From IMG/VR virus record IMGVR_UViG_3300045284_000563, positions 1-53,474 of that record: 53,474 nucleotides of DNA. The stretch is one strand, 5' to 3'. Numbering within the stretch: position 1 is the first letter of the stretch; each line of letters starts with the position of its first letter. This DNA is from a virus. Taxonomy: Duplodnaviria; Caudoviricetes. Shown here one piece after another: positions 6,918 to 48,320 of this stretch. The notes under the pieces are model-generated. The model was not told the DNA's origin. It saw nothing but the letters and a program-made list of their open reading frames with translations, and made no database searches. The position numbers and the translations under genes were made by a program.

Positions 6918-7457
6918 ATGCCCCTCGTGACCCTCCTTCTCGTGGCACTGAACGCGGCCGTTTACGCCCTCGAGCTCTCGAGCGGCGGGATGCCGGTCTG
7001 CGAGAAATTCGGCCTAGTTCCAGCCCATCCGGGCCTGGGCACGCTCCTCACCTACAGCTTTCTGCACGACCCTCGGACCCTCGTTCATCTGGGCTGTAAC
7101 ATGGCCTTTCTGGCCGTTTTCGGGACCGTGGTCGAAAGGGCCATCGGGGGCGCCCGGCTCCTCTGCCTCTACGCCCTCGCGGCGGTCGCCGGGGGCCTCT
7201 TGCATGGCGCGGTCGACCCGACGGCGACCGAAGCCTTGGTGGGCGCCAGCGGGTCGATTTTCGGGCTTATCGCATTCTCTGTCTCGATCAACCGTCGACT
7301 CGTCGGATTCGCCCTCGCGTTCGGCGCCATCAACGTCTGGTACGCGCTCGCCGGCACCGGCGGCAGTATCAGCTTCGGAGCCCACATCGGCGGCCTGCTC
7401 GTAGGCACCGTTTGCGCCCTCGTGCAAACGATCGTCGGGAAAGAGAGGTTTGCCTAA
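6918..7457 (+). CDS. Rhomboid-family intramembrane serine protease
   Basis: FLH...HLGCNM, GASG catalytic Ser motif, AHIGG catalytic His; multiple TM helices. Confidence 0.92.
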   Translation: MPLVTLLLVALNAAVYALELSSGGMPVCEKFGLVPAHPGLGTLLTYSFLHDPRTLVHLGCNMAFLAVFGTVVERAIGGARLLCLYALAAVAGGLLHGAVDPTATEALVGASGSIFGLIAFSVSINRRLVGFALAFGAINVWYALAGTGGSISFGAHIGGLLVGTVCALVQTIVGKERFA

Positions 7458-7460
7458 AAA

Positions 7461-7560
7461 CTTCGCAAAACTAAGCGCTGCAACCCCCGGCAGCGCAGCG
7501 CCGAGCGGCGCCGAGCAGGGCGCGCCTCCGCCACGCAAACCGAATCAAAGCTCACTTTTT
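7461..7560 (+). ncRNA. 5-nt-periodic tract 1 (candidate guide-like RNA)
   Basis: C at every fifth base from 7461 to 7551 (19 in a row), mostly as GC; ends GCAAACCGAATCAAAGCTCACTTTTT. Confidence 0.65.
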
Positions 7561-7578
7561 CACAAGGAGAACTCAATC

Positions 7579-8223
7579 GTGTCTTTTCAATACACAGAAA
7601 CTTGGATCGAAGGAACGATGCCGCTACTCATGGCGGCGTTCGGAACAGAAGCGGCCGAAAACGTACCCGGCGGTAGCGGCCCCAATACTCGACCGTCTAT
7701 CACAGCCGTCAAGCAGCTTACTCCGCGAGAGATCGCCGAGAAGAGCTGCTACCGCGAGAACGGGAAGCTCGACTCCCCACTCGTGTTCCCTGGCACCGGT
7801 GTACAACGCGCGATCGTCGAAGCCGGCGGCAACCACAAGGAGAAGGGCACCCGCAAGTCGATGAAGTATCGCGTGCCGGCCGCGGTACTCGTCCTCGACG
7901 AGCTTGCGCCGCTCTACAACGAAGACCGGAAAACGCGCATCACGACCTACGAAGTGGACAGTCGCCGGGTCGTCAATCCGAGCACGAAGGGCGCACTGCT
8001 CGCTCACCGTCCACGCATCGAACGCTGGACGTTGAAGTGCACGATTCGCATCAACGAGAACCTCATGGATCCGGCGTTCGTGAGACAGCTCCTCACTGAG
8101 GCCGGAGAACAACTCGGTATCGGCGCCTTTCGCCCCGAGAAGCGCGGACCATTCGGTCTGTTCCACGTCGTCGCGTGGGATTGCGTCGACGGGACGGCCG
8201 CCATGAAGCGGAAGGTAGCCTAA
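7579..8223 (+). CDS. Stand-alone RAMP / Cas7-like RNA-binding protein
   Basis: N-terminal strand IEGTMPLL, P..G..RAI helix, C-terminal Gly-rich loop GEQLGIGAFRPEKRGPFGLF. Likely start is GTG 7579 after AAGGAGA. Confidence 0.7.
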   Translation: MSFQYTETWIEGTMPLLMAAFGTEAAENVPGGSGPNTRPSITAVKQLTPREIAEKSCYRENGKLDSPLVFPGTGVQRAIVEAGGNHKEKGTRKSMKYRVPAAVLVLDELAPLYNEDRKTRITTYEVDSRRVVNPSTKGALLAHRPRIERWTLKCTIRINENLMDPAFVRQLLTEAGEQLGIGAFRPEKRGPFGLFHVVAWDCVDGTAAMKRKVA

Positions 8224-8230
8224 CAACTAA

Positions 8231-8343
8231 CGGCACAGCACGGCCCCGCGGGGCGGCGCATCGCGGCGCTCGGCCCAGCGCGCCCGAGCACGACGCCGCC
8301 GAGCACTGACTTGCCCCGCACACCAAATCAAAGGACCGTTTTT
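8231..8343 (+). ncRNA. 5-nt-periodic tract 2 (candidate guide-like RNA)
   Basis: cgGCa caGCa cgGCc ccGCg ggGCg gcGCa tcGCg gcGCt...; ends GCACACCAAATCAAAGGACCGTTTTT. Confidence 0.7.
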
Positions 8344-8345
8344 CG

Positions 8346-8563
8346 AACGTGCGTCGCCCAACCTCAAACAGAACTCCGCTGAGCGGTACGGTGCTCAGCA
8401 TGGCGCAACATCGCATTGCAAGGACGAGCAATGCTCGGCAAGTCTCGGCACCGCAGCGCCACGCACCGCTCAGCAAAGCAGCGCTCAGCAAAGCCACCCG
8501 AATCGGCGCGCCGCCGGGCTACGCATCGCTGCGCACAGCCGAGCAAACCAAAGGACACTTTTC
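8346..8563 (+). ncRNA. 5-nt-periodic tract 3 (long; candidate guide-like RNA)
   Basis: About 34 in-phase NN-GC-N units from 8376 to 8545; ends GCAAACCAAAGGACACTTTTC. Confidence 0.7.
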
Positions 8564-8569
8564 TCGCTC

Positions 8570-8875
8570 ATGAAATCGTCGAACACCCCCTTCCACTTCC
8601 CTCGCAACCGCGAGCGCTGGACCCCCGGCGAAGAGCGCAAGCTCCTCGAAATATACGCCTCAACCGGCCGCGTGTGGTGGTGCGGCTCGTGGCGTACGGC
8701 ACCGCGTTACCGGGCCGCGGAAGAGCTCGGACGATCGCCGTCAGCGGTGCAAGATCGTTTCATCGAGCTCCAGCGGTGCCGACAACGAGCGAGAGTTACG
8801 CCTACGCAGGACACACACGACAACACCGACGAGGACGGGTCGCCGCTCAACGCAGACAACGACCCGGACGCATGA
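8570..8875 (+). CDS. Myb/SANT-like HTH protein
   Basis: RWTPGEERKLLEIY...AAEELGRSPSAVQDRF. Confidence 0.65.
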   Translation: MKSSNTPFHFPRNRERWTPGEERKLLEIYASTGRVWWCGSWRTAPRYRAAEELGRSPSAVQDRFIELQRCRQRARVTPTQDTHDNTDEDGSPLNADNDPDA

Positions 8876-9390
8876 ACAATCAAGAAAGGAAACCATCCGT
8901 GAACGACGCCCCGCTTACCCGCTCGAAACACTCCTCGCCCCCTCGCCCCGCTCCCATGACGTCCGAGGACGTGATTCACGAGCTCGCCGAAGCGCTCCGC
9001 GACACCATCAACGAGATCGATGAGCTATACGTTCGAGCGAACCCTGAGAGCGCCTACCTCGATCTCGCGTGTAAGCTCATCTTCCGCATGAAAACGGTCA
9101 CCATCGTGCCTGTACACGCGCAGGTCGAATCTCGGGAAGCCGAGATACGCCAAGCCGAGGGCGAGGGTGCTGTGCGGATCTTCGAAGCGCTCGACCGGTG
9201 GCTTCTTGCGCGCGAGGCCGGCGCCCGATCCATCGAGACGGGCGTCAACGTCGCAGGTAGACGCGAAATCACGATGACCGAGGGTGCAAACACCAACTAC
9301 GAAGTGAAGGGGTTCTTTCAGGGCGAATCGCTTCAGGATGCCTGCGCGCAGGCGGCGCAGGTCTTGCTGTTCAACGGAGACGACTCGTGA
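8872..9390 (+). CDS. Hypothetical protein
   Basis: ATG 8872 coupled to the upstream stop; C-terminal part of ORF 8416..9390. Confidence 0.6.
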   Translation: MNNQERKPSVNDAPLTRSKHSSPPRPAPMTSEDVIHELAEALRDTINEIDELYVRANPESAYLDLACKLIFRMKTVTIVPVHAQVESREAEIRQAEGEGAVRIFEALDRWLLAREAGARSIETGVNVAGRREITMTEGANTNYEVKGFFQGESLQDACAQAAQVLLFNGDDS

Positions 9391-42589: not shown

Positions 42590-43831
42590 CTACTTGCGTT
42601 TCAGGATCGTGAGGCCGTTGTTGTTTCGGAAGCGTTCTACCACCTGCCACTCTGGGTGCGCGGCGACGAACTCTTCCACGGCGGTCCATAGCCCCGGCCT
42701 GGTGCTGTCCTCGCTCATGTCTCCGAAGACTTCGGTGTCGTGCATGATGATGTACTTCTTCGCGCACACTCCGTGCTTTTCTAGTTCAGCCTTGAGCTGC
42801 CGATAGACGTGGTAGGTGTCGATGAAGAGCAGATCGACGGGCTCGATCGTCAAGTCGAGCGTGTCTCTGCGCTCGAACGCGAGATCGGTTCCGGCCTCTT
42901 TCGCGAGTTTCCCTTGCAGTGCGAAGTCGGCGTCGCGGATGTCGTAGCAACGGAGTTTTTTCGGTCTGGCGCGCAGGAACGCCCAAGTGGAACGGCCGAT
43001 GCCGAATTCGGTCACGCTTTCACATTCTTTGGCGTACTTGCAGAGCGTCTCCATGTGCTCGTTGATGTCTGCGGGGGTGTCTCGAAAGAGTACGAAGTGT
43101 CGTTCGATTTCGTCCATGGTTCCGTTCCTGATCCCATCTCCGATGTTGTGGCAAACTTTTTCCAGGTAAGTGTCCCAAATTTCACGTTCGCGATTGACGA
43201 TAGGCGTCCGCTCGTGCACGTGTCCGGTGCTGACCCCACCACGGTGCCAGCAGACTAGATCGCGTAGTGTTACGCCGTGCCAACCGGCTTTTGACAAGAG
43301 CGTGTGGATCCAACCGTCGCCGTACCAAATGAGAAGCTCGGCAGGTACCGGGAAGGCAAGCTCGGTCGCTCTGCGCGTCATGGCGAAGAAGGATCCGCCG
43401 GTGCCTTGCGTGTCGGTCGGTTCAACGGAGGGGGTGTAGTGTCGATCGATCTCTTCGACGTTGTGAACAATGCGCCCGAACCATAACTCGTTTTCGTTGT
43501 TCTTTTTTGCCTGCTCGTAGCGCATCAACAGCGACTCCGCCCAACCAGGAGCCGTTGCGAGATCAGCGTTTGCGACCACGAAGATCTCGGCGCTCGAGGC
43601 GAGAAATCGCGCCGCGAGCTCGTTCCAGGCCGGGTAGACGTACACATTTTTTTCGTGTCGAATTATCGAAATCTCGTTCGACATCTCGTAGAGCGCCAGC
43701 TTCACATCGGTCGAGCCTCCGTTGTCGACCGCAACCACATCCACCGAGGGGTGTTGGAAAGAGCGCAACGCCTTGAGCAAGAGCTCGCGATCTTCTGCAA
43801 AGCAAGCGGTGCCCAGCATAATTCGCGTCAT
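42590..43831 (-). CDS. GT2-like glycosyltransferase fused to class I SAM methyltransferase
   Basis: VDNG, N..V..AWN, NAD, WYGD.W; then DINEH, EFG, DLLFIDT.H, HDT, NNNGLT. Confidence 0.8.
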   Translation of the reverse strand: MTRIMLGTACFAEDRELLLKALRSFQHPSVDVVAVDNGGSTDVKLALYEMSNEISIIRHEKNVYVYPAWNELAARFLASSAEIFVVANADLATAPGWAESLLMRYEQAKKNNENELWFGRIVHNVEEIDRHYTPSVEPTDTQGTGGSFFAMTRRATELAFPVPAELLIWYGDGWIHTLLSKAGWHGVTLRDLVCWHRGGVSTGHVHERTPIVNREREIWDTYLEKVCHNIGDGIRNGTMDEIERHFVLFRDTPADINEHMETLCKYAKECESVTEFGIGRSTWAFLRARPKKLRCYDIRDADFALQGKLAKEAGTDLAFERRDTLDLTIEPVDLLFIDTYHVYRQLKAELEKHGVCAKKYIIMHDTEVFGDMSEDSTRPGLWTAVEEFVAAHPEWQVVERFRNNNGLTILKRK

Positions 43832-45798
43832 GGTTTGATCCATTTCATGGCTTCGATCTCCTTGATGTCGACCTGCGATATCCACGCCTCTCTGTCGCGA
43901 ACTCCGTAGGAAAGAACGAGTTGTTCGTTGTCCAGGGCGAGACCGGCGCAGAACTCGATACCGAATCCGGCAAAGACCCACGCAGGGGAGACGGCGATCA
44001 CGCTGAACTTCTTGTCAAGTCGCACGAACCGATGAAGGTAGACCCGACTTTCGTCCGTTTCGATGGTCTCGTGTGTGACGCAAAGGTAACCGTCTTGCAG
44101 TGCGATAGCCGCTCCGCCACGTAGATGTTCGAGGGCGAAGGGACACTTTCGGAGCGGCCCGGGAAGAATTGCCGTCGGATCGAGTGAGTAAATCCACGTG
44201 AGCATGCCGTCGATAGCGAGCGGCATCCAATTCTTCTCGTGCATTTGGTTGGTTGGCTGCACCTCACGGCGCGTGACGTCACCCTCGTCATTGAAAAAGA
44301 GTCGTGCAATGAGCCGTCGATCTGTGTCGTGGTCACAGACCGTGGCACTCGCCCCAAGAACGTTGCCGTCCAGTTCGTCGAGCGAGACCAGCCGAATATC
44401 TTCGTACCCGACGATGCGCGACGGCACTCGAAGTGAACGATCTAGGTCTCGGATTAGCCTGTGGTCTACAAGTTCCACGTTGGGTGTGAGTTTGCCGAGG
44501 TAGTTCTCCGTACGCACGATGCCCTCAGGGTCGTGGACGGTGTATTCACGCCCGTTCAGTGAGTAGTTTACGGTCCGCACCACGCACCAGAGCTCGCCCT
44601 TGTGCCAGCAGATACTCGGGTTCATCGGATGCCATCCGTTTGGTGGCCTGAACGTGATCTCTGTGTTGTGCGCGGTTGGGCAGAAGCTCGAGAGAGCCGG
44701 TGGCCGGAGCATTGATCGGGCCTCGAATCGGCGGGGATTCGATTGCGTGATGCTGAGCCGGTCTAGTTCGTGATTATCCGAGACGCCAAGGCGGGCGCGT
44801 TTGGCAGCGTGAAAATCTAGCTCGGCTTGTGCGCGTTCAGGGCCGGGCGGGAGTACGAATCGAAGCACGTCGTAAGGGAGTTCGTAGAGCGCCGGCATAT
44901 GGCGGAACCAGTCGCGCTCGGGGCCACAGCCTTTGTAGCGCCCCACTGCCGCAGCCATTCGTGACCACGCAATGGCCTGATCGGCGCGTCCGAGTTTGCA
45001 CGCGCACAATCCTGCCATCCAAGCGCACTCCGCGAAATGGGCGTTCGCAGAAAGACCTCGTGCAGCGGCCACGATGGCCTCGTCGAACAATTCTAAATTG
45101 AAAAGTTGCTCGGCCTGTTTGTATGCGGCCCAGGCGGCTTCGTCGCCTACCTTTCGAAGCCCGACACATTCACCGAACGCTATGGCGGCGAGCTCCTTAG
45201 CGCCGATCCCTTCGTAAGACGCACCGAGATAGTAACGCCAACGTGGATCGTCTGGGTGTTTCTTGATGTAATCCGTGAGGAGTCTGATATCGCGTTCGAA
45301 CTTTTTTTGCGCCTGCTCGTGGGATTTGCCGAGCTCGTAGAAAGTTGCGCCTTCGAGTGTTTCGAACGACCTGACTATGAGTGTTTCGTGCGTCGGTCCG
45401 GTGAAGTACGCTCCCGACGAAGCGCGAACGATTTTTTCTTTCGGGTATGATCCGTCTGCCGCTTCGATGCGTATCGAATCGGCCCGCACATTAGAAAGCG
45501 TCGCACGGAGATCGAGATTTCCGAAGTCTAGGCGCTCGTCGGAGTCGACGATGAGTGTCCAGGTTGCCCCGAGCGCTTTGGCGGCTTTGAGTCCGGCGTT
45601 GCGCGCCGTCGAGAAGTCCGACCATTTGTGTTTGACGATTTCTAGCTTGTCGCCCGCGACTTCTTTCGCTCGTTCGACGGTGCCGTCTTTGATGCCGGTG
45701 TCGAGCAAGAGAACAAGGTCGACGTGATCTACGACGCTTAGGAGCGCGTCCGCGATTTCGTGTTCGCGACTGTCCGTGATGGTGACGCTGACGATCAC
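43828..45798 (-). CDS. GT2 glycosyltransferase + TPR + beta-propeller glycosidase-like domain
   Basis: DTG..DGT, W.DFSTARN, DSDE, HE; TPRs; NPSI, GYEDIRL, EKNWMP, LRGG, IEFCAGL, SYG..D. Confidence 0.85.
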   Translation of the reverse strand: MIVSVTITDSREHEIADALLSVVDHVDLVLLLDTGIKDGTVERAKEVAGDKLEIVKHKWSDFSTARNAGLKAAKALGATWTLIVDSDERLDFGNLDLRATLSNVRADSIRIEAADGSYPKEKIVRASSGAYFTGPTHETLIVRSFETLEGATFYELGKSHEQAQKKFERDIRLLTDYIKKHPDDPRWRYYLGASYEGIGAKELAAIAFGECVGLRKVGDEAAWAAYKQAEQLFNLELFDEAIVAAARGLSANAHFAECAWMAGLCACKLGRADQAIAWSRMAAAVGRYKGCGPERDWFRHMPALYELPYDVLRFVLPPGPERAQAELDFHAAKRARLGVSDNHELDRLSITQSNPRRFEARSMLRPPALSSFCPTAHNTEITFRPPNGWHPMNPSICWHKGELWCVVRTVNYSLNGREYTVHDPEGIVRTENYLGKLTPNVELVDHRLIRDLDRSLRVPSRIVGYEDIRLVSLDELDGNVLGASATVCDHDTDRRLIARLFFNDEGDVTRREVQPTNQMHEKNWMPLAIDGMLTWIYSLDPTAILPGPLRKCPFALEHLRGGAAIALQDGYLCVTHETIETDESRVYLHRFVRLDKKFSVIAVSPAWVFAGFGIEFCAGLALDNEQLVLSYGVRDREAWISQVDIKEIEAMKWIKP

Positions 45799-45974
45799 TT
45801 GTTGACCCGTCGTGCTTCCGAGAGCGCGAGCATGCGCACCCACGCCGAGGCGGTACCGATGCCCGTTCGTTGTGCAGCGCGGACGATCTCGCGTTTTTCG
45901 GCGCCGGAAACGCGGAAGATCAGTCGATCGTCTTTACGCTCGGATTCCGTTTTCTTGGGTCGACCTAGACGCAT
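45795..45974 (-). CDS. MobC/RHH-like regulator (59 aa, not in ORF track)
   Basis: MRLGRPKK...LIFRVSGAEKREIVRAAQRTG..SAWVRMLAL; coupled to the GT gene; TTGACG upstream on the minus strand. Confidence 0.7.
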   Translation of the reverse strand: MRLGRPKKTESERKDDRLIFRVSGAEKREIVRAAQRTGIGTASAWVRMLALSEARRVNK

Positions 45975-46886: not shown

Positions 46887-48320
46887 TCAAAAGTTCACGC
46901 GGGTCTGCTCGCCAGCAGAACCCGCACCTCCTGTCGATCCGCTGGCAGCGGTTCCTGCGCTTCCTCCGACGCCGAGCGCCGAATTGGCCGTTTGTGATTG
47001 CAGGTTGAATACGATTCCGAAACCACCAGCAGCTCCGCCTCCACCGTCACCGCCTCCAGCGCCTCCGCTGCCGGTGCCTCCAGTGCCTCCAGCGCCTCCG
47101 TCAATAGAGAGACCGCCTGTCACGGAGCCAATGATATTGCCTGCGACTACGATTCCGAAACCGCCACCACCGCCGGATCCTCCACCACCGCCGCCTCGAG
47201 CGCCTGCGGCGGGTGATCCACCGTTGCCGCCGGTTCCACCTTTGGCCGAGATGAAGCCGGCAGCCGCGCCTGTGACGATGAGCGTACGCGTTGCGAAAAG
47301 GAGGCCATGTCCGCCTTGCGCGCCGCCTCCACCTCCGCCGCCTGCTGTGCCGTCGCCTCCACCGCCACCGCCACCAGGACCACCGGCGCCACCGTTAAAC
47401 GAGAGCGCGCTACCAGTTACGCTGATGTTGACGCCGCGGTTGAAGATCGCCAACAGATCAAGGCGATGAGGGAGGTTGCCGCCGTCTCGAGTAACTGTGA
47501 TTCCCGCTCGCGTTGCGCCGCCCGGGTTTGCGCCCGCAGTACCGCCTTTGCCGGACGTACTTGTCGAGCCGCCTGACGATCCGTTTCTAGGTTGCGGTGC
47601 GGCAGCTTGATTGCCGCCTGCTGCGCCGCCCGCACCGCCTGCGGTGCCTAGACCTGCTGCGCTTGGAATGGTGAGCCCGTCTGCTTCGGTCGTGCCGCCG
47701 GCTGTGCCTGCTCCGCCGCCTGCGGCGCCGTTGCCTGCTGCTGCGCCCACACCGCGGAAGATCGTGTCCACAGGCATGCCTGTGAGATCGGTTATGCCGC
47801 TGCACCATAGCCGGAAGCCGGCGACGTCGATCTTTGCGGTTCCCGTGAGTGTGATCGACGAATAGTAGGTGTCGCGTGTGAGCGTCGTCGTGCCGCTTGA
47901 TTGACTCAGCGCTCCGTCGCTGCCATCCCCGAAGAGCGAGAAGAGCATGTACGAATTGACGAGTGCAGCGTTGGTAACGCCAGGTCCCGTTGGTCCAGTC
48001 GGTCCGGTGGGCCCGGTGGAGCCGCGTGGCCCAGTCGGTCCGGTGATGCCTTGAGCTCCACTAGGTCCGGTCGGTCCGGTGATGCTTACGCCGGCCGGAC
48101 CTGTCGGCCCTCCGGGGCCTGCCGATCCACCGGGACCCGTTGGTCCTGCTGATCCGCCTGGACCTGTCGGCCCCCCAGGGCCCGTTGGTCCACCTGGACC
48201 TGTTGGTCCTGCTGATCCGCCACCACCCGGGCCCGTTGGTCCCCCGGGACCTGTTGGACCGCTGCCGGAAGAGCCCGGCCCTGTGGGTCCTGTAGGCCCT
48301 TTGCAGATCAGAGGGATCAT
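46887..48320 (-). CDS. Collagen-like plus Gly-rich fibre protein
   Basis: GPTGPGG repeats, FGDGSDGAL, long GGGGG segments. Confidence 0.85.

Follow-up and report, generated by a model that had tools for sequence, protein, structure and literature searches.

Organization of the locus

The window analysed here is the whole 53,474-nucleotide stretch of IMG/VR record IMGVR_UViG_3300045284_000563, which covers about 65% of the genome of a soil phage. Between a rhomboid protease gene and a Myb-like gene it carries a gene for a 214-amino-acid protein, named vipr below, and this gene is flanked by three tracts of 5-nt units, each followed by a constant 3′ tail. The features of the locus are as follows.

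6918..7457, plus strand: gene for a rhomboid-family membrane protease (Pfam Rhomboid, E 7.5e-20)
7229..7273, minus strand: match site for the upstream guide of sister phage G001 (units 1-15 of that guide), in rhomboid codons 104-119 around the GxSG catalytic-serine motif
7459-7473, plus strand: three weaker units before the vrRNA 1 repeats, directly after the rhomboid stop codon
7474..7533, plus strand: vrRNA 1 repeat region, 12 units of x-G-C-N-N
7534..7560, plus strand: vrRNA 1 constant 3′ tail (A-rich, CAAAG, 3-7 nt, T run)
7579..8223, plus strand: vipr gene, 214-aa Cas7-like RAMP, with G-loop GIGAFRPEKRGPFG
8232..8316, plus strand: vrRNA 2 repeat region, 17 units
8317..8343, plus strand: vrRNA 2 constant 3′ tail, with the tail motif of the clade
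8377..8541, plus strand: vrRNA 3 repeat region, 33 units
8542..8563, plus strand: vrRNA 3 constant 3′ tail, with the tail motif of the clade
8570..8875, plus strand: Myb-like DNA-binding gene directly after the array (Pfam Myb_DNA-bind_6, E 7.3e-7)
8875..9390, plus strand: downstream ORF with no assigned function, 88% identical with G001 and weakly shared with locus L082

The 214-aa ORF lies exactly where a preliminary description of this DNA had placed it; it starts with GTG, and an AAGGAG ribosome site is found 9 nt upstream. The Myb-like gene also matched PHROG 323, a transcriptional regulator (E 7.8e-5). Translation of the downstream ORF probably begins at the ATG at 8956; neither Pfam nor PHROG gave a family for it, and its Atlas clusters were unnamed and all below 0.9. 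No Rfam family was found within 7300-8700, and a sigma-70 consensus scan of the locus gave no promoter, with terminator-like sites at chance level.

The same description had reported neither a CRISPR array nor other cas genes beside this ORF. Both statements agree with our searches: Tandem Repeats Finder revealed no CRISPR array in the whole window, and comparison of 48 ORFs with PADLOC and 20 with Pfam revealed no core cas family, a result that applies to the record, about 65% of the genome. The cas-labelled PADLOC matches were generic, comprising a DEDDh protein (CAS-associated, E 9e-22) and helicase-domain matches to typeIV_DinG and typeIV_RecD, and a weak Cas4 match (E 6.4e-4) fell on a PD-(D/E)XK nuclease.

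Pentameric arrays and guide tails

VIPR, a CRISPR-related RNA-guided DNA silencer, was first described in 2026 (PMC13142463, identical with bioRxiv 10.64898/2026.04.26.720920), and its structures have been reported (10.64898/2026.04.26.720927; PDB 36pp). Of the VIPR types I-VII, the experimental reference is type II, from Escherichia phage SUSP1 and a Pseudomonas fulva prophage (PMC13142463). Published guides have 9-16 units, each consisting of a G-G-Y/NN scaffold “or a related consensus”, and an invariant 3′ tail (PMC13142463).

Three tracts with GC every 5 nt had been noticed earlier at the present locus, and a scan of the whole window confirmed them and found strong 5-nt periodicity nowhere else in the 53-kb record. 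GC in one 5-nt phase in at least 8 of 12 was found only at 7452-7560, 8200-8328 and 8370-8568. In-phase GC occurred in 12 of 17, 15 of 19 and 28 of 41 units of tracts 1, 2 and 3, respectively, and none of 5000 shuffles per tract reached these counts, the shuffle maxima being 9, 10 and 15. Identity within the tracts was 0.47-0.53 at lags of 5, 10 and 15 and 0.17-0.40 at other lags, and it was flat within the ORF. The earlier count of 19 successive occurrences of C at every fifth base in tract 1 was exact (7461-7551); such runs reached 15 and 25 in the other two tracts, with a maximum of 11 elsewhere in the window. The tracts are not a simple microsatellite, as had also been stated, and Tandem Repeats Finder reported three short period-10 or period-15 pieces only.

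When the 62 units were read as x-G-C-N-N, G was present in 53 and C in 60 of them, while the information at x, N4 and N5 was only 0.06-0.17 bits, and 14 different NN words were observed. The first scaffold position (A in 17 units, C in 23, G in 15 and T in 7) carried 0.11 bits. A constant G-G-Y scaffold is thus absent at this locus, where G is kept at the second position, Y at the third is C and the first position is free, and the “GC-core” proposed in the preliminary description is more precisely a scaffold of N-G-C-N-N. The 33-unit vrRNA 3 region probably holds more than one guide; the 17- and 33-unit arrays may each hold several, comparable to the staggered arrays described in the legend of fig. 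S18.

A 3′ motif was common to 10 of 10 guide tails in the clade of the window. These tails are about 25 nt long with a hairpin of at most 4 bp, and a small AAAG/CUUU hairpin was predicted in the tail of vrRNA 1. Compared with shuffles, the whole guide RNAs showed no better folding (z −1.3 to 0.1). The inverted repeats seen at the start of vrRNA 1 and vrRNA 3 were considered as a 5′ cap; folding z-scores gave this no support and the inverted repeats of vrRNA 1 also overlap units that match its putative target, so a 5′ cap is not claimed.

Fold and homology of the Vipr protein

Single-sequence structure prediction of the protein was useless (pLDDT 34.7), and an AlphaFold2 model built from 31 sequences reached a pLDDT of 81.9 and a pTM of 0.76. 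Structure prediction followed by Foldseek had been proposed as a check of the fold, and it pointed to a Cas7-type RAMP: there were 118 PDB matches at E of at most 0.001, those listed being Csm3/Cas7 of type III-A or Cas7 of type VII, with 6xn3_F the best among the matches listed (E 2.1e-7, TM 0.57). Cas7-family chains also ranked first when the model was aligned by VIA-align to 48,161 chains, of which 28 had Z of at least 8; the best three alignments had Z 11.3 (rmsd 4.5, 155 aligned), Z 10.9 (rmsd 4.1, 162 aligned) and Z 10.7 (rmsd 3.5, 153 aligned). In the predicted model, the RRM core, glycine-rich loop and thumb are present as in Cas7-type RAMPs.

At the sequence level, a profile of 31 homologues matched one PDB sequence only, 36pp_D, annotated as “SUSP1 Vipr protein” (E 1.9e-8), and the alignment of profile positions 4-192 to residues 2-185 of 36pp_D was nearly full length. 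The VIPR-type systems to which the preliminary description had likened the locus are real and were published in 2026, and the present protein is related in sequence to SUSP1 Vipr. Searches with the single sequence found no match among PDB chains and none by tblastn against INPHARED phages, and Pfam and PADLOC held no family for the 214-aa protein; it matched PHROG 4652, a family without known function. Within the protein family, the G-loop GxGxFRPEKxGPFG is nearly invariant.

SUSP1 Vipr was solved in complex with pentamer-repeat RNA (PDB 36pp). In this structure, G2 and Y3 of the scaffold are held by R138, W178 and R179, and G1 is read by H17 and D177 (PDB 36pp). According to the profile alignment, R138, W178 and R179 correspond to R144, F184 and R185 of the present protein, and the G1-reading H17 and D177 correspond to A19 and A183, both alanine. 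The absence of a constant G at the first scaffold base matches Ala at both G1-contact positions.

Conservation among relatives

The flanks of homologues had been suggested as a check in the preliminary description, and period-5 tracts were present beside the gene at all 94 fetched homologue loci (80 of 80 from IMG/VR and 14 of 14 genome loci). Read along the gene's strand, the units of most relatives are NN-GGC or NN-GGT. We then compared the scaffold with the G1-contact residues, counting distinct loci only. Loci with Asp at the G-loop position had median first-G fractions of 0.87 for H+D (n=48), 0.63 for N+D (n=14) and 0.90 for R+D (n=1), with the exception of one Asp locus (L035) in which the first G was weak (0.26). 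In comparison, the first-G fraction was 0.02-0.17 in the four scored Ala loci (L001, L082, L030 and L038). Besides the lineage of the window, the other two lineages with Ala in the G-loop among the fetched loci also lacked the first G, and the Asp-to-Ala correlation extends over three lineages, for which a quick tree does not prove separate origins. Of 124 family representatives with a readable G-loop, 18 had Ala and 24 had Ser at this position.

Sister phage G001, whose locus is L001, has a complete genome of 80 kb. The vipr genes of the two phages differ at 38 of 645 nt, with 36 of the differences at third codon positions and one amino-acid change. In tracts 1 and 2 the units share G-C with those of G001 but differ at the three remaining positions, and the vrRNA 3 repeats are nearly identical in G001, with one whole-unit (5-nt) indel and 4 substitutions; G001 also carries one extra guide. 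This sequence comparison indicates that the vipr gene is under strong purifying selection while the guides turn over.

A rhomboid homologue lies directly upstream of vipr in G001, L082 and L083 and is a conserved neighbour in the clade. The IMG/VR search for relatives of the rhomboid gene, intended to widen the set of targets, returned G001 only. Contigs from four soil DNA runs likewise yielded the sister phage again and nothing else. VIPR loci “typically” contain a vap accessory gene (PMC13142463). No conserved accessory gene was found here: no common family appeared in 44 of 167 listed neighbour ORFs from 19 loci, nor did we find neighbours common to the window and more distant relatives. 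The Myb-like gene, absent from the sister phage, is a possible accessory gene of the vap kind.

Decoding of the guides

The variable dinucleotides had been proposed as a code for a target search, and part of this proposal succeeded. The upstream guide of G001, when its N4N5 positions were read with one skipped target base, matched the rhomboid gene of the window at 26 of 30 read positions, and the skipped bases were the third (wobble) positions of codons. The match had a −log10 p of 9.75 against a null mean of 5.22 and a null maximum of 7.92, and none of 1000 shuffles reached it. G001's own rhomboid allele matched the same guide at 21 of 30 positions. Among 20 combinations of read positions and skip, N4N5 with one skip was the sole non-trivial outlier. 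Of the two registers proposed in the preliminary description, this comparison supported xGC followed by the dinucleotide and did not support GCx. G-C read at skip 3 was also an outlier, a trivial one that finds the window's own period-5 arrays, and a three-base code that also reads x was rejected, x agreeing with the skipped target base no more often than by chance (5 of 14 cases).

The window's own guides gave no significant target in an unrestricted search. vrRNA 1, vrRNA 2 and vrRNA 3 (the last as a whole and as 3a and 3b) had no match above shuffles in the window, in the complete G001 genome or in the other fetched loci, and no self-target was found in the window. An exact gapped pattern of ten vrRNA 1 units had no match in IMG/VR, a search that accepts perfect matches only and is therefore weakly informative. 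Of 20 positions compared with rhomboid alleles, vrRNA 1 matched 17 in the allele of L083, 16 in that of L082 and 14 in its own. We tentatively take the L083 and L082 alleles as its putative target, a match that was an outlier in the rhomboid-restricted search only (0 of 200 shuffles).

Interpretation

Taking fold, homology, arrays and decoding together, we consider it highly probable that the locus is a phage-encoded VIPR system with a G-C-core scaffold. Rather than a new type of system, it is the known VIPR kind with a relaxed scaffold; the novelty implied in the preliminary description did not hold, since this kind is in the 2026 preprints, whose text already allows a consensus related to GGY/NN. 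By analogy with the published systems, the flanking tracts would be transcribed into three (or more) guide RNAs, on which Vipr would polymerise with one protomer per 5-nt unit. Vipr would hold the G and C of each unit, equivalent to G2 and Y3 of the published scaffold, and the next two bases would be displayed and pair with double-stranded DNA two at a time, every third target base being skipped. The filament, once bound, would block transcription of rival mobile elements. In this clade the first scaffold base is free, its readers in SUSP1 being alanines here, and in this phage family the rhomboid-adjacent guide seems to be directed at rival phages' alleles of the same gene, just upstream of the rival's VIPR locus.

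A free first base (0.11 bits) and the lack of a significant unrestricted target for the window's own guides would also be expected of a decaying or non-functional VIPR remnant, in which the guides eroded after loss of the G1 pocket and the arrays direct nothing. However, a remnant would hardly show 36 of 38 vipr differences to G001 at third codon positions with a single amino-acid change, nor retain G in 53 and C in 60 of 62 units despite wholesale replacement of the remaining positions between the sister phages. In addition, a G001 guide built on the same scaffold agrees with a natural target at 26 of 30 positions, and loss of the first G together with Ala recurs in two other lineages, so that we regard decay as improbable.

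It is very improbable that the tracts act as DNA, that is, as protein-binding arrays such as iterons, nucleoid-type sites or regulatory sites, with one site per half helical turn and no guiding role. The failure of the sigma-70 consensus to give a promoter-like site would agree with such sites, but in every case the arrays share the strand of the RAMP gene and are closed by a strand-specific tail that includes a T run, the homologous SUSP1 protein was solved in complex with such RNA, and the variable dinucleotides decode into a rival phage's coding sequence only under the published RNA-guide rule. As for an orphan Cas7 of CRISPR type with another role, such as a degraded type III/IV piece or an anti-CRISPR decoy whose periodic flanks are coincidental, we give it hardly any credence: the record has no CRISPR array or core cas gene, Vipr is the one solved structure that matches at the level of sequence, and arrays accompany the gene at 94 of 94 fetched loci, even though the best structural matches are Csm3, Cmr4 and Cas7 chains.

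A wider joint reading can be offered, which as a whole we consider possible but rather unlikely. Replacement of the G1-pocket His and Asp by Ala would have created a VIPR sub-code anchored by G-C alone, which may have arisen up to three separate times and may be common. The soil-phage family would be engaged in allele-specific warfare over a rhomboid-VIPR operon, the first guide of each phage being written against the rhomboid alleles of rivals and mismatched to its own, and the 33-unit array would be a multi-guide precursor with processing not yet described.

The locus offers a natural experiment for VIPR, which was first published only months ago. It points to Asp and His as the residues that set the first G in the constant part of the guide code, and it suggests that the first-G constraint can relax with the rule of two bases read and one skipped unchanged, which bears on the engineering of VIPR guides with fewer sequence constraints. 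It also suggests a second ecological setting, high-GC soil phages, in which the apparent target lies just upstream of the rival's VIPR locus. Anti-VIPR targeting has been reported for SUSP1-family phages (10.64898/2026.10.15.759431), and the apparent targeting of rhomboid genes seems to echo it.

Comparison with known systems

The locus resembles the VIPR systems of SUSP1 and P. fulva in having a small stand-alone phage-encoded RAMP of about 20 kDa, with guide genes on both sides of vipr and on the same strand. Its guides are likewise built from 5-nt units in tandem, in each of which two bases are hypervariable, and end in a constant 3′ tail; two bases appear to be read and one skipped, with the skips at codon wobble positions, and the apparent targets belong to rival phages, within or close to their VIPR loci. 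The G2- and Y3-holding residues of SUSP1 Vipr are conserved, and the link to that protein is by profile only, the single-sequence INPHARED search being empty. Unlike in SUSP1, the scaffold here is N-G-C rather than G-G-Y, with Ala in place of both G1-reading residues. Its guides have a short tail with no recognisable pseudoknot, whereas the type II tail is a pseudoknot of about 40 nt, and the 17- and 33-unit arrays exceed the published 9-16 units per guide. A conserved vap gene was not found, and the neighbours are a rhomboid protease gene and a Myb-like gene, the latter in this phage only.

In its predicted structure, the protein shares the RRM core, glycine-rich loop and thumb with Cas7-family backbones (Csm3, Cmr4 and Cas7 of types I, IV and VII), and by analogy its expected mode would be the same, with one protomer per fixed RNA step and periodic base flipping. 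In contrast to class 1 CRISPR effectors, it has no second RRM and is accompanied by no CRISPR array or other cas genes. Each step would span 5 nt, of which 3 bases are sequestered, compared to 6 nt with 1 base flipped in CRISPR, and the guides are hard-wired in the genome rather than acquired.

Period-5 tracts around the vipr gene

The record is linear, with 53,474 bases at 60% G+C, and about 65% complete according to CheckV. Replication genes of this phage include a primase-polymerase, several helicases, a PD-(D/E)XK nuclease, an AAA_24 ATPase and a dCMP deaminase. The features discussed here are the following.

6918-7457, + strand: rhomboid-family intramembrane protease gene, immediately upstream of the VIPR locus in each of the four clade members (the window, its sister phage, L082 and L083)
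7579-8223, + strand: vipr ORF, 214 aa, GTG start, AAGGAG 9 nt upstream
8570-8875, + strand: Myb-like DNA-binding gene, 101 aa, following the last guide tail and preceding the next conserved gene
42590-45843, - strand: two large ORFs that encode glycosyltransferase family 2 domains, with TPR repeats in one of them
46887-48320, - strand: 477-aa ORF without a Pfam family, with tandem repeats of period 15-24 and 63 at 47033-47376 and 48097-48221

Three non-coding tracts bracket the 214-aa ORF. When the whole window was scanned for GC in a single 5-nt phase, only 7452-7560, 8200-8328 and 8370-8568 stood out, and the in-phase GC counts were matched by none of 5000 shuffles for each tract. This confirms the period-5 GC flanks reported in the preliminary description and places no other such stretch in the window; its count of 19 consecutive C at every fifth base is exact (7461-7551), with runs of 15 and 25 in the other tracts and of 11 or fewer elsewhere in the window. 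Written as x-G-C-N-N, the 62 units had G in 53 and C in 60, and x, N4 and N5 were essentially free (0.06-0.17 bits). Tandem Repeats Finder detected almost nothing in the tracts, so the variable positions are non-repeating and, as had been proposed, this is not a simple microsatellite.

Within the guide repeats (vr1, 7474-7533; vr2, 8232-8316; vr3, 8377-8541), a 15-nt duplication of three units lies inside vr3 (8463-8494), 7-8-bp inverted repeats of G-C scaffold units open vr1 (7475-7496) and vr3 (8377-8400), and there is a GC palindrome in vr2 near 8244-8257. The inverted repeats and the palindrome may reflect chance in G-C-periodic sequence, or 5' structure; overall folding z-scores were non-significant.

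Family and predicted fold of the 214-aa protein

No family was found for the protein in Pfam or PADLOC, and PHROG 4652, of unknown function, matched it at E 2e-10. A word-indexed search returned 31 unnamed metagenomic homologues, and an exhaustive search returned 1444 cluster representatives at E<=0.001, 396 at E<=1e-10 and 28 at E<=1e-30. Folded alone, the protein gave a poor model (pLDDT 34.7); the model built with the 31-sequence alignment reached pLDDT 81.9 and pTM 0.76. With this model, Foldseek found 118 PDB matches at E<=0.001, and the matches listed were all chains of Csm3 or Cas7 (E 2.1e-7 and TM 0.57 for the best), in agreement with the RAMP-like identity earlier attributed to the ORF, as far as a predicted structure can indicate. 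VIA-align, which is independent of Foldseek, ranked Cas7-family chains first among 48,161 representative chains (Z 11.3, 10.9 and 10.7), with 153-162 residues aligned at an rmsd of 3.5-4.5. A single-sequence search of PDB sequences gave no match, and the family profile gave exactly one, 36pp_D, "SUSP1 Vipr protein", at E 1.9e-8 and nearly full length.

Tracts at homologous loci and in the sister phage

Relatives are encoded in 121 IMG/VR stretches, of which 80 were kept. All 80 had a period-5 tract within ~200 nt of the gene, while the same threshold gave two weak false calls in the 53 kb of the window itself. Tracts were also present at 14 of 14 genome-assembly loci, from MAGs labelled Chthoniobacterales, Phycisphaerae, Opitutaceae, Hyphomicrobium, Desulfovibrionaceae and Geobacter, so that the comparison of flanks suggested in the preliminary description came out positive throughout. 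On the gene's strand the dominant consensus was NN-GGC or NN-GGT. Because the relatives all carry tracts, mostly of these two forms, the family is Vipr with canonical guides. Some canonical relatives have very long arrays, up to ~1240 nt in L027 (L013, L014, L015, L027, L035 and L036 were noted for long or separate arrays), and in L015 and L035 several separate arrays are spread across 6 kb.

The window's own subgroup is rare and long-branched, with protein identities of 99% to the sister phage (fetched locus L001, genome G001), 91% to L082 and 83% to L083. G001 is complete, with 80,264 bases and terminal repeats. Its vipr differs from that of the window at 38 of 645 bases, 36 of them third codon positions, with one amino-acid change. 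In tracts 1 and 2 all three non-GC positions differ between the two phages and G-C is still in register; the third tract is almost identical, the differences being four substitutions and a deletion of exactly one 5-nt unit, and G001 carries one guide more. A common short tail follows the guides of the clade (10/10), A-rich at first, followed by CAAAG, another 3-7 nt and a run of T, with a 4-bp AAAG/CUUU hairpin predicted in the vr1 and vr3 tails. Whole guide RNAs did not fold better than shuffles (z -1.3 to 0.1), which would be expected of RNA held single-stranded. The tracts thus appear to behave as guides, for which transcription, processing and Vipr binding are predicted.

A sister-phage guide matches the rhomboid gene of the window

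In the published systems, the NN bases of the guide RNA (vrRNA) pair with double-stranded DNA, and one target base, usually a codon wobble base, is skipped per unit (PMC13142463). We compared the guides of all four clade members with the sequences of the window, of G001 and of every fetched locus at various skips, using shuffles of unit order as the null. Units 1-15 of the upstream G001 guide matched 26 of 30 read positions in antisense orientation at window 7229-7273 (-log10 p 9.75; null mean 5.22, maximum 7.92; 0/1000 shuffles). Among 20 combinations of two adjacent read positions with skips 0-3, only "two bases after G-C, skip 1" yielded such a non-trivial outlier; the sole other outlier, G-C at skip 3, trivially finds the period-5 arrays themselves. 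The site covers rhomboid codons 104-119, around the GxSG serine motif, and the skipped bases all fall on third positions of codons. The free base x agrees with the skipped target base in just 5 of 14 cases, so x is not read. This match fixes the register as xGC|NN, upholding the gapped two-base target code proposed earlier, here through a guide of the sister phage, and shows that the published read-two-skip-one rule holds in an N-G-C variant. At the homologous site of its own rhomboid allele, the G001 guide matches 21/30.

The window's own guides scored no higher than shuffles in the unrestricted search of the window, G001 and the fetched loci, and no self-target was found there. In a search restricted to the four rhomboid alleles, units 1-10 of vr1 matched L083 at 17/20, L082 at 16/20 and the own allele at 14/20, and 0/200 shuffles reached the L083 score; three weak units upstream of 7474 added no rhomboid matches. 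The first L082 guide matched the G001 allele at 16/20 (1/200 shuffles). Since the best rhomboid match is a rival's allele for three of the four upstream guides, these alignments suggest a conflict, specific to alleles, over the gene that lies immediately upstream of the VIPR locus in each phage. The rhomboid alleles of the clade are only 48-72% identical, compared to 83-99% for Vipr. Silencing at a rival rhomboid gene might also keep read-through from reaching the rival's vipr.

The first scaffold base and its pocket

In SUSP1 Vipr, H17 and D177 read the first scaffold base (G1), R138 and W178 hold G2, and R179 is part of the Y3 pocket (10.64898/2026.04.26.720927). We mapped these residues by counting along the HMMER alignment of the profile to SUSP1 Vipr and along family alignments. 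The counterparts of R138, W178 and R179 in the window protein, R144, F184 and R185, are kept, and A19 and A183 stand at the places of H17 and D177. As judged from the alignments, the pockets for the two bases conserved in the guide RNA are intact, and the pocket for the non-conserved base is without both reading residues; A19/A183 is a plausible structural cause of the N-G-C scaffold.

Scaffold frequencies were taken over distinct loci, with identical duplicates counted once. With Asp in the loop rich in glycine (G-loop), at the position of D177, the median first-base G was 0.87 with His at the beta-strand site (n=48), 0.63 with Asn (n=14) and 0.90 with Arg (n=1). With Ala, first-base G was 0.02-0.17 at the four scored loci (L001, L082, L030 and L038), and L038 has A as first scaffold base at 0.85. 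L035 is an exception, with Asp in the loop and first-base G of 0.26. A quick maximum-likelihood tree set three Ala lineages apart, needing three changes, but a single origin would also be compatible with its well-supported branches taken alone. Non-canonical scaffolds may be common in the family, because the 124 G-loops readable among the 150 best representatives had 76 Asp, 24 Ser, 18 Ala and 6 other residues. The closest homologues outside the clade (P0015-P0021 and P0032, 53-57% identity) have Ser at this position.

Neighbouring genes and other cargo

The Myb-like gene next to the array has no counterpart at this place in the 80-kb sister phage, suggesting a recent insertion or loss. A scan of 44 of 167 listed neighbour ORFs gave no conserved accessory gene; in distant relatives the neighbours were ordinary phage genes with nothing in common. 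Elsewhere, the repeats of the 477-aa ORF look collagen-like or Gly/Pro-rich, as in tail fibre proteins, and the glycosyltransferase ORFs are unusual cargo adjoining putative structural genes.

Comparison with published VIPR systems

The phage systems with GGY/NN repeats to which the preliminary description compared the locus are real and published (PMC13142463, bioRxiv 10.64898/2026.04.26.720920; structural companion 10.64898/2026.04.26.720927; also 10.64898/2026.10.15.759431). Each comprises a Vipr RAMP of ~20 kDa together with vrRNAs in which 9-16 YNNGG units precede a constant 3' tail; the targets lie in satellites and rival phages, the VIPR loci of rivals among them, and each of the seven types described has "GGY/NN motifs, or a related consensus" (PMC13142463). 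The window locus is a genuine VIPR locus, so the kind of system is already known and the idea of an undescribed one does not hold. It varies the published scaffold, with N-G-C in place of G-G-Y, and a natural target has been decoded within its family. Compared to the published 9-16 units, its arrays of 17 and 33 units are longer, and may comprise several guides.
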